Source: a virus (lineage: Duplodnaviria; Heunggongvirae; Uroviricota; Caudoviricetes). Taken from it: a stretch of DNA of 51,823 nt. Within the stretch, counting starts at the first letter, position 1; every line of letters starts with the position of its first letter. Shown here piece by piece: positions 36,001 through 42,000 of the stretch. The position numbers are program-made. The DNA lies in IMG/VR virus record IMGVR_UViG_2721755725_000010. One strand, written 5' to 3'.

Positions 36001-39000
36001 AAGAAACTGGTCGAGGATTTCAGGCGCAGACGCCCCTGCACCAATCAGCGCCAGAACGGCAGCCGACAGGCCGTATCTGATTTTTGCGTTCATGGATATT
36101 TATCAGGGTTTATCGATTTCAAATCCCTGGATATATTAAGTCTTCAGGCCAGCGGTGGAGTCTTCAGAGAACCCGTAATTATTCCCGGTAGTTTTCCTCT
36201 GTAGGTTATCAACACATCCTGCGCCTCTAAAATGATGGGCCGCTTTTCCGGCAACGGACCATCCCCTTCACATAACCCGGCAGCAACATCCATGAAAAAC
36301 TGCTTCGCCTGCTTTTTCGCCTCAGCTTCGTAAAACTCCAGCGTGGCACCTTCAGTACGGTCAAGACTAATCGCCACATCTGGCAACAACAGTGACGGAT
36401 ACCCACCAATTTCCAGTGCCACAGTAACAGTAATCTTATCCGGGTAATTATTTATCCCTTTAACAACCAGTTCGTATTTTTTCTTCATCACTTTACTCTC
36501 CCCGCACCGCCTTACGCCGGTCCTCTCTGATTTTGAAATACAGGTTAGTCAGATACGTCAGCAGGCCAAACAGCAGACTCCCCAGTACACCTATTGCCAC
36601 CCACTGGGACGGAGAGACTTTGTCCAGCAGTTGCAGTAACCAGTATCCCGTCCCTACCGCTGACGTGGTGTATGACACACCTGTTGTGATTTTTTCCATC
36701 TGATGTATGTCTCCGTCACCGCCGACAGAAAATGAAAGTAAAGGAAAACAAAAAGCCGCCAGTGTCACCCACTGACGGCCAACTCCGGGAGCCGTGATTA
36801 TGGCATTCAGGCTCTGCTAAAAATGCCAGATAACATTCCGGCCCCCCTGGTTCAGGTTATAAATGACACAATATCTTGACAACATCCGTCACTGTCTGTC
36901 AGAAAATATACCGCCAGGCATAAGTATCATGTGAAATCCAACTATCCTTTTGAGCCAGCACCTCCCCACCGAAAGTCAGTGCTGGCTGTTTTTTTCCTTA
37001 ATAAAGCATCTGTAACTGAAACAATCCGCATATTGATAATATATTGACAGGCATCATTGCTGTCTGTGAAAAATAAGTCTCTACAAACATACAAGGCCTT
37101 TTAGCCAGCGTCTTCTTTCAGGTCAGTCGCTGGCTCTTTTTTTATTATGCTGCCGGTGCATTTATCTCCAGCACCAGACTTTCTATCTCAACGCCATACG
37201 CTGCATTTTTTGTAACATCCGTCAGCGTCAGCGCATTCAGTCCCAGTGTCAGACTGTCTTTTATAACCTGGAATGCCGGGCCAGCCACTCCATTCAGTTT
37301 CGGAGTAACCGTGGCACTGCCGGCGGTGAACACCAGCTCCAGCGTCTGCCAGTCGTTACCGTAATCGCCGAACTCCCCCAGCTTCGTGTTTCCGGCTTTC
37401 CTGTGATGCATCAGATTCACTCTGCCGTCAGTGGTCTGAGTGAAGTACGACATCAGGAACGGATTACCGGTACCCGTCATCGCCACACCATCAGGAACGG
37501 GAGCATCCGTATACAGATAAATCCCCAGCCCGAACTGATTGTTGGTCAGTGCGCCTGACAGGCGGAACTTACAGGTCAGTCTGCCGCCCTGTGTCAGCAG
37601 GGTAATTGCGTCATCCACCGGATGCGTCAGGGACCAGGTTTTATTGCTCTGCTTGGTGATCTTAAATACACCATCTGACAACTGAATTCCGCCATCCTTA
37701 ATGCTCCAGCCCTGCGCAGCAGCCTCTCCGGCTGCCGGCAGCAGGGAGATTGTGCGAACGGACGTATCTGCAGACGGACCCGATGGCGTGTTGCCGCCGG
37801 GCGAGGGTTTGATTTCCGGTGCCTTACCACTGATGAAGGCTGAGGTGCGCCCGGCTGCGTTCAGAATAGCGGTTGCCAGACGATCCGGAATAATGCTCCT
37901 GCGCGCCCATGAACTGAAATGTGTCGGGCGGTTTGATGATACCTGGTTTCCATTCGTTCTCGATGCCGCACCGTAATATCCTGATGCCGGAATATCCGGA
38001 TCTTCTGCCGGCGCGTTAGTGGCGGTATTGACGCCGTTACCGTCTGTCATGAAGGGCACAAAATAAACGCCCTCACTCTCCCTGTTTTTGTACGCCCCGT
38101 AAATGGTGTTGTACTGGGTGCCGTAGGTATTTTTCCAGTAATACGTCGTGTCACCACAAATCCACGGCACATCTGCAGCACTGCCACCATGGCACTGCGC
38201 GTTAAACACGGAGAGGTCAGCACGAAACTGTGTCAGCATGGCTGTAAACAGCGCAGGTTGCTGTGCGTGGGTGGCGGCGCTCATGTCAAACTCTCCCTGC
38301 ATCCAGCAGACGGCCAGCAGAACGTTTTTGGGATTTTTCTGCAATGCCGCTTTTGTGCGGGAAATCAGGTCCTGATATAACGGTTTACCCACACCCCAGC
38401 GTGCCGAATCCTGGCTGGCCCCCGTGTCCGCACTGAATGTCCCCTCCGCGCCCTGGGTGAATGCCGAACCACCACGACAGCATGGTACCAGCAGGATCCC
38501 CGCGTTATTCGGGATATACGGAAGCAGTTTTTTGGCAATATGTAAGCCCTGGCCGACACAGCCGTACTGCCCTTTGCTCAGGTCTGCCTTCGGATGATTC
38601 AGCGTACTCATATCCTGCACATCATGCAGGCAGTGGTCGGCCGGAATAATATCGTTATATCTGCAGGCAGCCCCGCCCGGCGTAACTGTACTGCGGCGCG
38701 CCAGCTGTTTAATGCGCGGATCCGGAGCATCGTATGAATCCGGCAGCGGAAGCCCTTCACCGTAAGCCATGGCATTGGACTGCCCGGCCAGTACGATGAC
38801 GTAGTACCAATCCGGCTCAGTTGCACCACTGACCACCACATCACCTTCTGCTGTAATCGCCTGCATCAGGGTATAAGGGGTTATGGCCACCGGACTACCA
38901 AACGGCTGCCAGCCCTCTTTCAGTTTGTGTGTCAGCTTTTCCGCAAGGTCTGACGGCGACGCCGCCCTGACAACATCATAATGTTTAAATGTCATTATTC

Positions 39001-42000
39001 CTCCCGGCCGGGATAGTGTATTAAATCAGATATGGAGTGGGCTGGCTGTAGTCCGGAAGCCTGAATGACACTCGGGGACTACAGCCCAAGAAATGAAAAA
39101 AGGCCACGCAGTTGCGCAGCCTGATAAACCCTGGTTAAAATCCACACGATAACAACACAACAATATCAGTATCTCATGCTATTGCCCGAACCCATTCGGG
39201 CATTTTTTACCCATAAAAAAAGCCCCTCCGGAGAGGGGCATGTTTGCATGCACATTCTTTTTCTTGCATGGTGCCGGGTGCCTCCCGGTGAATTCAGTAT
39301 CAGCACCTGAATCCGCGATTATCACATATACCTGGTTGCTGATTGCCCCTCCGCACAGGGGGATTCACCATGCAGTAGTATTTTTAATAAACAGCAAATA
39401 AAAAAATCAAGCATTATGCAGGCTGTTTCTTTTTATCACCGGCTACAGCAATACCACAATGCCGCAGACCAGCACCCCATCCGCCAGCACCGACATGATT
39501 CTGCTGGTGAAATCCACCATCACCACCAGAAACAGCAGGAGTGCAGCCACAGCCAGGCGCAGTTTTACCGTCACTGGTGATTCTCCAGACGAAGACCCAG
39601 AACACCGGCAATCTCTTCCAGCACCTTGCGCTCTTCCGGCTCAATTATTTCTGACGTAAACGCGGACAGCGCAGGCTGATTACGCAGTACCTGTTCGATC
39701 TTCGATTTCTAGGAAGCCTCACATTCACCATCTGCACAGGCCACCAGGTAGGCAGCATTAATAACCGCCTGTGCCAGATTGAACCGCCCCGGAAATCCTG
39801 GAGACTAAACTCCCTGAGAAAGAGGTAAACAGGATGACTAAAAATACTCGTTTTTCCCCCGAAGTCCGTCAGCGGGCGATTCGTATGGTTCTGGAAAGTC
39901 AGGATGAATATGACTCACAGTGGGCGGCAATTTGTTCCATTGCCCCAAAGATTGGCTGTACGCCGGAGACTCTGCGTGTCTGGGTTCGCCAGCATGAGCG
40001 GGATACCGGGGGCGGTGATGGTGGGCTCACCAGCGCTGAACGTCAGCGTCTGAAAGAGCTGGAACGTGAAAATCGTGAACTGCGCCGCAGTAACGATATC
40101 CTTCGCCAGGCTTCCGCTTATTTTGCGAAGGCGGAGTTCGACCGCCTCTGGAAAAAATGATGCCACTGCTGGATAAGCTGCGTGAGCAGTACGGGGTCGG
40201 ACCGGTATGCAGCGAACTGCATATTGCCCCGTCAACGTATTACCATTGTCAGCAACAGCGACATCATCCGGATAAACGCAGTGCCCGTGCGCAGCACGAC
40301 GACTGGCTGAAGAGAGAGATACAGCGCGTATACGATGAAAATCATCAGGTGTACGGTGTGCGTAAAGTCTGGCGTCAGTTGTTACGGGAAGGAATCAGGG
40401 TGGCCAGATGTACAGTGGCACGTCTCATGGCGGTTATGGGACTTGCCGGTGTTCTCCGGGGTAAAAAGGTCCGTACGACCATCAGCCGGAAAGCCGTTGC
40501 CGCAGGCGACCGCGTAAACCGTCAGTTCGTGGCAGAACGACCTGACCAGCTGTGGGTGGCTGATTTTACTTACGTCAGCACATGGCAGGGCTTCGTCTAT
40601 GTGGCGTTTATCATTGATGTGTTTGCCGGATACATCGTGGGGTGGCGGGTCTCATCGTCTATGGAAACGACATTCGTGCTGGATGCGCTGGAGCAGGCGT
40701 TGTGGGCCCGTCGTCCGTCTGGCACCATCCATCACAGCGATAAAGGCTCTCAGTATGTGTCACTGGCCTATACGGAGCGACTAAAAGAAGCCGGATTACT
40801 GGCATCAACAGGGAGTACAGGCGACTCGTATGACAACGCGATGGCTGAGAGCATCAATGGTCTTTACAAAGCGGAGGTAATACACCGTAAGAGCTGGAAA
40901 AACCGTGCAGAAGTGGAACTGGCCACACTAACGTGGGTGGACTGGTATAACAATCGACGATTGCTGGGAAGGCTGGGCCATACTCCTCCGGCAGAAGCAG
41001 AAAAAGCTTATTATGCTTCCATCGGAAACGATGATCTGGCAGCCTGAGTTCACAGATAAAACACTCTCCAGGAAACCCGGGGCGGTTCACATCGCGTTTC
41101 TCAAACTTTCCTTTTTCCGGTTAACGTGACACACCAATAACTCTTGTCGAAAAAGCCAGCAAGCTGAAAGACCGGTATTCACCGCCGCCAGCGCGTTTAC
41201 TGTACTGACGCGATTTTCGGACATAAAAAAAACGCCTGGCGGCAGTTTTTTTCTTACTTTGCCATCGCGTACAAAATAGGCAAAATATCAGATTTATACG
41301 AAACATACGCGATTTAATTGACTTTTGCAATATCTCGTCGTGAAAAGGTCGCTTTTTGTTGCGCTCTTATTTTCACGGAGCAAATCAAGGATTCTCTATC
41401 GAGGCGCTTAAAAATATCGCACATCTCACGCCAGTAGTTCGCATAATTATGGCTCCAGTTATCAGGCTTAACTCCACACAGTCTGGCAAGCTCCTGTCTC
41501 TGGTAGACCTCACACCCGGTAACCCATCCTCTGACATCCTGTGCCGCCAGCCAGATCAACTTCTTCACACGCTCCAGCGTTTTCACTGCAATTTTTCTGG
41601 TACCAGACTGAGTTTTAAATTCATTCCACACCCACTGCGTTATCGCGATCTGATGCTCCCAGCAAATGTTTCCGCCATAACACCACAACAACCACGCCTT
41701 CTGATGTTCTTCCAGTTCCAGAAGGGTACGCCGCCACGATGATGTTGCAAACTCAACAGGACTGACCAGGGCAATTGATGAGCCTTTCGCCAGTGATTGT
41801 TTACCCGGGATTGGGGGATTATCCCGCGTGATCATTTTTCCGGTTACCTCATCGCGGTAACGAATTTTTTTGCGTCTGTAACGCCCTGTATCGAACAGGG
41901 CATTTTCCTGCCAGGCTTCCAGTTGACCTTTTGTCGCCCCACTGAGATCCGCAGTGGCAATCATGAGTTGCTCACGAACAAACTGTAAATACTGGTTATT

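Follow-up and report, generated by a model that had tools for sequence, protein, structure and literature searches.

Back-to-back terminators upstream of a prophage nanS-p gene as the probable ends of two convergent Hfq-binding small RNA genes

Directly upstream of nanS-p, a stretch of 51,823 nucleotides from a tailed phage (IMG/VR record IMGVR_UViG_2721755725_000010, hereafter the window) carries a highly structured region in which two terminators stand back to back. This raises the question of which transcripts they end. An earlier note, made by a model from the sequence alone, offered two answers, a stranded remnant of the late promoter PR' or an independent small RNA (sRNA). Our analysis indicates that positions 39090-39410, which belong to the late part of a lambdoid prophage, very probably hold a dyad: two prophage genes for Hfq-binding sRNAs that converge and are each transcribed independently. 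The independent sRNA was the correct alternative, and two such genes are present, one of STnc100 type and the other AgvB. The dyad itself is already known. Both RNAs are curated in Rfam, AgvB has been functionally characterised, and the layout in front of nanS-p has been in the literature since 2014 and was taken up again in 2021 and 2026. The value of the result lies mainly in annotation, since agvB plus an STnc100/EcOnc06-type sRNA, and not a PR' remnant, is the correct label for the region.

The identification comes from an Rfam scan of the whole window at curated gathering scores. It returned matches to STnc100 and AgvB that converge, each over the full length of its model. AgvB (RF02702) scores 96.5 bits against a gathering score of 56 and covers model positions 1-62 of 62, all of them equal to the consensus. 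STnc100 (RF02076) scores 143.3 bits against 47 and covers model positions 1-206 of 206. The 191-nt STnc100 stretch folds with a minimum free energy of -69.9 kcal/mol (z = -3.75), which none of 200 shuffles equalled. The two terminators, 6 bp apart, lie back to back because they are the 3' ends of the two convergent sRNA genes. A terminator scan recovered both, the plus-strand one with a T6 run to 39208 and the minus-strand one with a T7 run that follows the stem 39239-39222 and ends at 39215. Both sites had been seen correctly, but the plus-strand terminator had not been recognised as the end of a second convergent gene, AgvB.

The structured region is a real and non-random feature, and the earlier note had observed it correctly. 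The scan found 5 terminator-like sites in all, compared with 1.1 +/- 1.4 in shuffled sequence, including a third minus-strand terminator (stem 39122..39101 followed by a T run) that had been overlooked. The hairpin reported at about 39043-39090 is a perfect inverted repeat, GGCTGTAGTCC/GGACTACAGCC, with arms at 39044-39054 and 39076-39086. A perfect stem of at least 11 bp arose in only 2 of 300 shuffles of 38950-39500. The "further stem-loops" mentioned alongside it turn out to be helices within the STnc100 fold (CCCCC..GGGGG, 39362-39346; CCGGG..CCCGG, 39288-39274). No tRNA or tmRNA was found in the structured region.

The same arrangement occurs elsewhere. Rfam models find AgvB and STnc100 arranged in the same way in prophages Sp10 and Sp17 of E. 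coli O157:H7 Sakai; over 480 nt that include the promoter regions, the window matches each of them at 97% identity. Sequence matching 38950-39700 is present in 2853 of 5426 complete E. coli genomes. At these two Sakai loci the original annotation has hypothetical coding sequences (CDSs) on the opposite strand across the STnc100/AgvB region, ECs_1960 (L082, 1872-2390) and ECs_3499 (L083, 2480-2809); they are probably spurious, since PGAP annotates none at this place in the identical E2863 locus.

No base differs between the window, Sakai agvB1 (Sp10) and Sakai agvB2 (Sp17), either in agvB or in the 60 nt before it. The conserved 3' module of about 42 nt with its Rho-independent terminator is present. 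The 5' variable region carries the CACAACA motif, and a duplex of the 5' 24 nt of AgvB with K-12 GcvB is predicted at -19.9 kcal/mol, against -13.7 +/- 2.8 for shuffles, 1.8% of which were as good. The candidate promoter consists of a -35 TTGCGC (39112-39117), a 17-nt spacer with TG at 39132-39133 and a -10 TTAAAA(T) at 39135-39141, and its -35 falls within the stem of the third terminator hairpin. A start near 39147 from this promoter is plausible. As in the published dyads, agvB sits in a convergent pair between the moron site behind PR' and nanS-p. A homologue of GcvB itself (RF00022) on the minus strand, 39247..39095, was considered and rejected at 24.3 bits against a gathering score of 42; the sub-threshold match appears because it is the mirror image of the AgvB complementarity to R1. 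The antisense strand of agvB holds a 12-nt identity to the GcvB R1 seed, UGUUGUGUUGUU, at 39162..39151, followed by the third terminator. Any minus-strand read-through RNA here would be at once a GcvB seed look-alike and a perfect antisense to AgvB.

For the STnc100-family gene, direct reading places the TTGATT hexamer on the minus strand at 39410..39405, as the earlier note had it. It would serve as the -35, separated by 17-18 nt from a -10 of TTAAAA/TAAAAA at 39387..39381. These hexamers are weak, which had also been said; a consensus promoter scan of 38800-39900 gave zero sites, and their support comes from related loci. Among 36 distinct upstream sequences from related prophages, T[G/A]TTA[A/G]AA stands fixed 7-9 nt before the conserved core GCATGGTGAATCC, and two unrelated upstream contexts converge only from there. 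Conservation of this box in unrelated contexts suggests that it is the gene's own -10, with a start near 39374. The position of TTGATT as a -35 holds for the upstream context class of this window. The transcript would probably run from about 39374 to 39215, some 155-160 nt, and so be shorter than the span of the Rfam model. Six of the seven other upstream classes sampled also have STnc100 matches upstream of nanS-p, several of them directly 3' of a tRNA cluster.

Published work supplies the expression and function of such copies. Using Hfq crosslinking, Tree et al. (2014; PMC4104026) described convergent sRNAs that lie after the moron CDS behind Q/PR' and before a conserved phage open reading frame (ORF), and reported them in Sakai Sp3, 4, 5, 9, 10, 11, 15 and 17. 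EcOnc01a and EcOnc01b, or AgvB1 (Sp10) and AgvB2 (Sp17), are 60-nt, Hfq-dependent primary transcripts whose 5' ends were mapped by 5' rapid amplification of cDNA ends (PMC4104026). The AgvB 5' region, which contains CACAACA, base-pairs with GcvB at its R1 seed; AgvB lifts the repression of DppA by GcvB, and a double agvB deletion is less competitive in bovine terminal rectal mucus (PMC4104026). EcOnc06 of Sp17 runs at about 177 nt on a northern blot and has an Hfq peak in crosslinking and analysis of cDNA, with a homologue 5' of ECs1961 in Sp10 (PMC4104026 Table S2). ECs1961 is the nanS-p homologue of Sp10, and the Sp17 copy of the STnc100-family gene is most likely EcOnc06. The earlier prediction of a minus-strand transcript of about 170 nt ending at 39215 fits an STnc100-family sRNA of this kind. 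A 2021 review treats AgvB and EcOnc06 as a dyad and calls the reason for the arrangement unclear (PMC7873438). Transcription of 11 STnc100 copies is known from EDL933, where a northern blot confirmed one of 191 nt (PMC5331693). Zhu, Shabalina and Storz (2026 preprint) link STnc100 to PasD1/PasD2 of enteropathogenic E. coli (EPEC), propose a common ancestry and show Pas sRNAs flanking the sialate esterase gene on both sides.

Comparison with these systems places the window copy more exactly. It shares with Sakai AgvB1/AgvB2 the same 62-nt sequence, promoter block, terminator and position convergent to an STnc100-type gene before the esterase ORF, but its prophage background differs, with a TerB-like gene cut by IS629 and a PF06323-type Q between two IS629 copies. 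With the wider STnc100 family (EcOnc06, EcOnc27/sRNA103 downstream of stx2B, and the EDL933 copies) it shares the full model, a terminator of its own and a late-region site. The family is mosaic, having a common core, GCAUGGUGAAUCCCCC...CACCGGGAGGCACCCGG, with differing 5' contexts and 3' ends. Overexpression of EcOnc27/sRNA103 of the Stx2 phage raises fimZ and espA transcripts (PMC12711010), but these effects belong to EcOnc27 only and not to the subtype in the window. The AsxR-EcOnc27 dyad 3' of stx2B (Sp5/933W type) has the same layout, in which a short anti-sRNA converges with a longer Hfq sRNA, the terminators abut, and the pair lies between a moron and nanS-p. The AsxR model scores a sub-threshold 43 bits (gathering score 63) on the AgvB 3' region, which fits a shared 3' module of about 42 nt. 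The two sponges differ in their 5' variable regions and targets, FnrS for AsxR and GcvB for AgvB, and in the gene upstream, stx2B as against TerB/DUF3927. PasD1/PasD2 of EPEC E2348/69 (Pearl Mizrahi 2021) occupy the same site upstream of the sialate esterase gene. A blastn-short search did not find in the window the PasD body with its UGUGAG seed directly upstream of the GGCUGCGCAUGGCGCGGCC terminator, and only the terminator at 39122..39101 is homologous. In loci L015, L027 and related ones, agvB is replaced, about 160-215 nt before nanS-p, by a different convergent sRNA, which Pearl Mizrahi et al. described in EPEC as the "E2348C_1409.E2348C_1408.IGR" RNA (GCCCGCGCAGGGAGACGCGGGC terminator). 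The dyad slot thus holds interchangeable antisense partners.

Table 1. Positions in the window of the sRNA dyad, its signals and the surrounding late-region features.
Feature	Position	Strand	Basis
nanS-p (616 aa)	37145..39004	-	Shine-Dalgarno GGAGG 39004..39000, ATG 38995..38993, CDS to 37145
nanS-p leader hairpin, 11-bp stem, 21-nt loop, 48 nt upstream of ATG	39044..39086	-	perfect inverted repeat
Third intrinsic terminator, AGGCTGCGCAACTGCGTGGCCT + TTTTTTCATTT, between sRNA pair and nanS-p leader	39090..39122	-	terminator scan
Candidate agvB promoter	39112..39141	+	sequence reading; identical block upstream of mapped Sakai agvB1/agvB2
agvB, anti-GcvB sponge sRNA, about 60 nt including terminator (stem 39183-39202, T run 39203-39208)	39147..39208	+	Rfam
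CACAACA, GcvB R1 target-mimic motif in AgvB 5' variable region	39156..39162	+	motif defined by Tree et al. 2014
STnc100-family sRNA gene (EcOnc06-type)	39209..39399	-	Rfam model limits
STnc100-family terminator, GCCCCTCTCCGGAGGGGC + U7	39215..39239	-	terminator scan; aligns with Rfam model terminator helix
Candidate sigma-70 promoter of STnc100-family gene	39381..39410	-	sequence reading and conserved -10-like box
Small DUF3927 ORF directly upstream of STnc100 promoter	39443..39574	-	RefSeq annotation of 100% identical E2863 locus
IS629/IS1203 copy, 1310 bp, truncating TerB-like gene	39780..41089	+	ALIL pseudoknot, annotation, junction
Candidate late promoter and short terminated leader	41225..41330	-	sequence reading and fold
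Antiterminator Q gene	41314..42009	-	Pfam PF06323, E = 2.8e-83, profile positions 1-217 of 220

From these elements a mode of action can be proposed. A weak sigma-70 promoter would start the STnc100-family sRNA near 39374, and the GC-rich terminator on the minus strand would end it; AgvB, of about 60 nt, would run from about 39147 to 39208. If the window copy behaves as its identical published copies do, its CACAACA mimic would pair with the GcvB R1 seed, relieve repression of DppA and related targets and thereby aid growth in bovine rectal mucus. The STnc100-type RNA may act in trans as an Hfq sRNA, as family membership and published Hfq data suggest. Judging from the layout, both sRNAs would be made in the lysogen, where the three terminators would keep transcription out of nanS-p and the lysis genes. 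On induction, Q-modified polymerase from PR' would pass both minus-strand terminators into nanS-p and run antisense across agvB.

Several points weigh against the dyad as we read it. The RNAs themselves were detected from identical or near-identical copies elsewhere, and their production from the window copy would follow by likeness. The consensus scan matched neither promoter, and both rest on identity or conservation with expressed copies. Lengths of the STnc100-type RNA disagree, at about 155-160 nt from the conserved -10, about 177 nt on the northern blot and 191 nt in the Rfam model. The equation of EcOnc06 with the STnc100 match rests on an offset of about 130-145 bp between Sakai genome versions, which we inferred from AgvB1 and the difference in total length. 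With this offset the EcOnc06 crosslinking peak (NC_002695.1 3486349-3486411, minus strand) would fall in the 3' half of the STnc100 gene. A trans-acting role for the STnc100-type RNA is likewise drawn from its family and from published Hfq data. In addition, the upstream IS629 and the deletion that came with it may change late read-through in this prophage.

The rival explanations concern mostly the minus-strand unit. On the late-promoter reading, it would be PR' with a short terminated leader, resembling lambda 6S RNA or StxS and split from Q by IS629. The unit is indeed short, has promoter-like hexamers and a strong terminator, and lies on the late-operon strand upstream of late genes; the PR'-tR' leaders of lambda 6S RNA and StxS are likewise short terminated late-strand transcripts through which Q-modified polymerase reads. 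It is also true, as the note said, that IS629 and a gene remnant separate the Q-like gene from the structured region, the distance from the STnc100 unit to Q being about 1.9 kb in the window. In intact Sakai Sp10, however, the stretch from Q to the unit already measures about 1.16 kb and holds two tRNA genes and a TerB-like gene, and therefore the distance was not created by IS629. Elsewhere the STnc100 unit directly follows a tRNA cluster, and a published copy lies 75 nt after stx2B. Unlike PR' leaders, then, it is not adjacent to Q in intact relatives, stands behind unrelated genes and belongs to a different RNA family, one whose curated model it matches in full. Conservation begins only at its own -10 box, and a separate promoter-plus-terminator candidate adjoins Q at 41330..41225. 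The Sp10 distance, the swapped upstream contexts and this separate candidate leave the remnant unsupported, and we regard it as very improbable. A different origin for the same RNA is processing, in which it would be a 3'-end fragment of the mRNA of the moron before it, TerB/DUF3927 here and stx2B in Stx phages, and would share its terminator. Hfq sRNAs derived from 3' untranslated regions are common, the unit comes right behind an ORF that is on the same strand and has its stop codon at 39443, and the promoter hexamers are weak. Yet the -10-like box keeps its distance while the sequence upstream is swapped between classes, in several classes the unit follows tRNA genes and not a CDS, and RpoD binds at STnc100 copies in Salmonella LT2 (PMC10794520). 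Processing thus has a small chance of being the right account.

That the region is only an insulating cluster of terminators, protecting nanS-p and the lysis genes and encoding no trans-acting RNAs, might be suspected from three terminators within 150 bp, where chance would give about one, and from the third having no sRNA body of its own in the window. However, identical or near-identical copies yield abundant Hfq-bound RNAs, and a trans function and a fitness phenotype have been shown for AgvB. Insulation is compatible with sRNA genes and no alternative to them; as the sole role of the region it is highly unlikely. Nor do small protein-coding genes account for the region, a reading we consider extremely improbable. 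ORFs of 44-53 aa overlap it on both strands, and hypothetical CDSs were drawn over it in the older annotation of Sakai, so that the original ECs_1960 and ECs_3499, or the ORFs of 45-48 aa in the window, could be proposed as genes. But in the 100% identical E2863 locus PGAP annotated no CDS between DUF3927 and nanS-p, indels of 1, 2, 4 and 6 nt distinguish relatives here, among them a 4-nt duplication in the window, and the RNA-family matches account for the conservation. Ribosome coverage of STnc100 copies in EDL933 is mostly low, but at least 1.5 for a few (PMC5331693).

The two sRNA families do not account for the conserved terminator and hairpin between them and nanS-p. Nearly all upstream classes keep the third terminator in front of nanS-p. 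Its homologues are the PasD terminator, where the seed precedes it, and the terminator that directly ends an STnc100-like RNA in L035-type loci. In the window, the STnc100 terminator and agvB separate the STnc100 core from it. Loci L035, L068 and L086 were compared for this terminator; where agvB is absent, the STnc100-like RNA ends there directly, and the STnc100 terminator plus agvB look as if they had been inserted as a module in front of it.

The nanS-p leader hairpin lies outside both Rfam models. Its stem usually has 12 bp, and a 4-nt duplication (CAGC) in the window and in Sakai Sp10 makes it 11 bp; stems of 12-14 bp occur in related prophages. In 16 distinct variants of a 14-pair helix, 90.6% of cells are paired and three pairs show compensatory change, against 30-44% in slid controls, but this evidence is modest, since the variants stand for no more than about three lineages and some of the stem was set by the search pattern itself. 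One lineage has G.U pairs that can form only in RNA of the nanS-p sense strand. A search of genome contigs for nanS-p relatives gave 12 loci, 3 of them with the N-terminal domain, and added little diversity. We tried and rejected the idea that the loop of the hairpin base-pairs with the ribosome-binding site of nanS-p, as duplex energies were no better than those of shuffled loops, of which a fraction of 0.10-0.91 did at least as well. A loop TGTCAT/TGCCAT opposite ATGACA/ATGGCA resembled covariation, and recombinant variants break the correlation. In PasD and L035-type loci, this place directly after the terminator is taken by another hairpin, which is shorter.

An Rfam scan of the hairpin and third terminator gave no family, only sub-threshold matches at chance level, and our literature search found no description of a function for either. 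One idea, which we put forward as doubtful, is that the PasD-type terminator and the hairpin within about 10 nt of it form a cis-acting leader of their own, a Q-dependent gate joined to a processing or stability hairpin for the nanS-p/lysis mRNA. In a related version, a minus-strand read-through RNA ending at the terminator could act at induction as an AgvB antidote or GcvB mimic. Neither version was found described in the literature searched.

The nanS-p product carries the Pfam domains DUF1737, SASA and DUF6645. Beyond the DUF3927 ORF, a TerB-family remnant extends to 39779, as translation across the IS junction shows. No matching target-site duplication was found for the IS629 copy at 39780-41089. 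The missing duplication and the loss of the 5' part of the TerB-like gene make an IS-mediated deletion or rearrangement likely. The window holds three IS629/IS1203 copies, at 5541-6850 (+), 39780-41089 (+) and 42092-43401 (-), two of them 100% identical and one 98.1%. The Q gene and the candidate PR' are bracketed by two inverted copies.

The region 41330..41225 is a candidate for the short PR' leader of this prophage. A TTGCAA at 41330..41325, 17 nt and a TATGTT at 41307..41302 make up the putative promoter, which overlaps the 3' end of Q. About 70 nt downstream, an A-run, hairpin and U8 (41252..41225) would end the leader. The consensus promoter scan did not list the candidate at 41330..41302, and a search of a phage collection with the region downstream of Q gave only partial 89% matches with no useful annotation.

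Other sRNA-like features lie elsewhere in the prophage. Between the nanS-p stop and the holin gene, 36949-36983 (+) matches PasA at 97% over 35 nt of its 3' part, terminator included, and runs antisense to the late operon. At 37121-37145 (+), a terminator-like hairpin, AGCCAGCG...CGCTGGCT with T7, adjoins the nanS-p stop codon. Neither the PasA-like match nor this hairpin is in Rfam. In the early region, 47017-47068 (+) is a gene for the antisense sRNA DicF (RF00039, 72.5 bits against 48).

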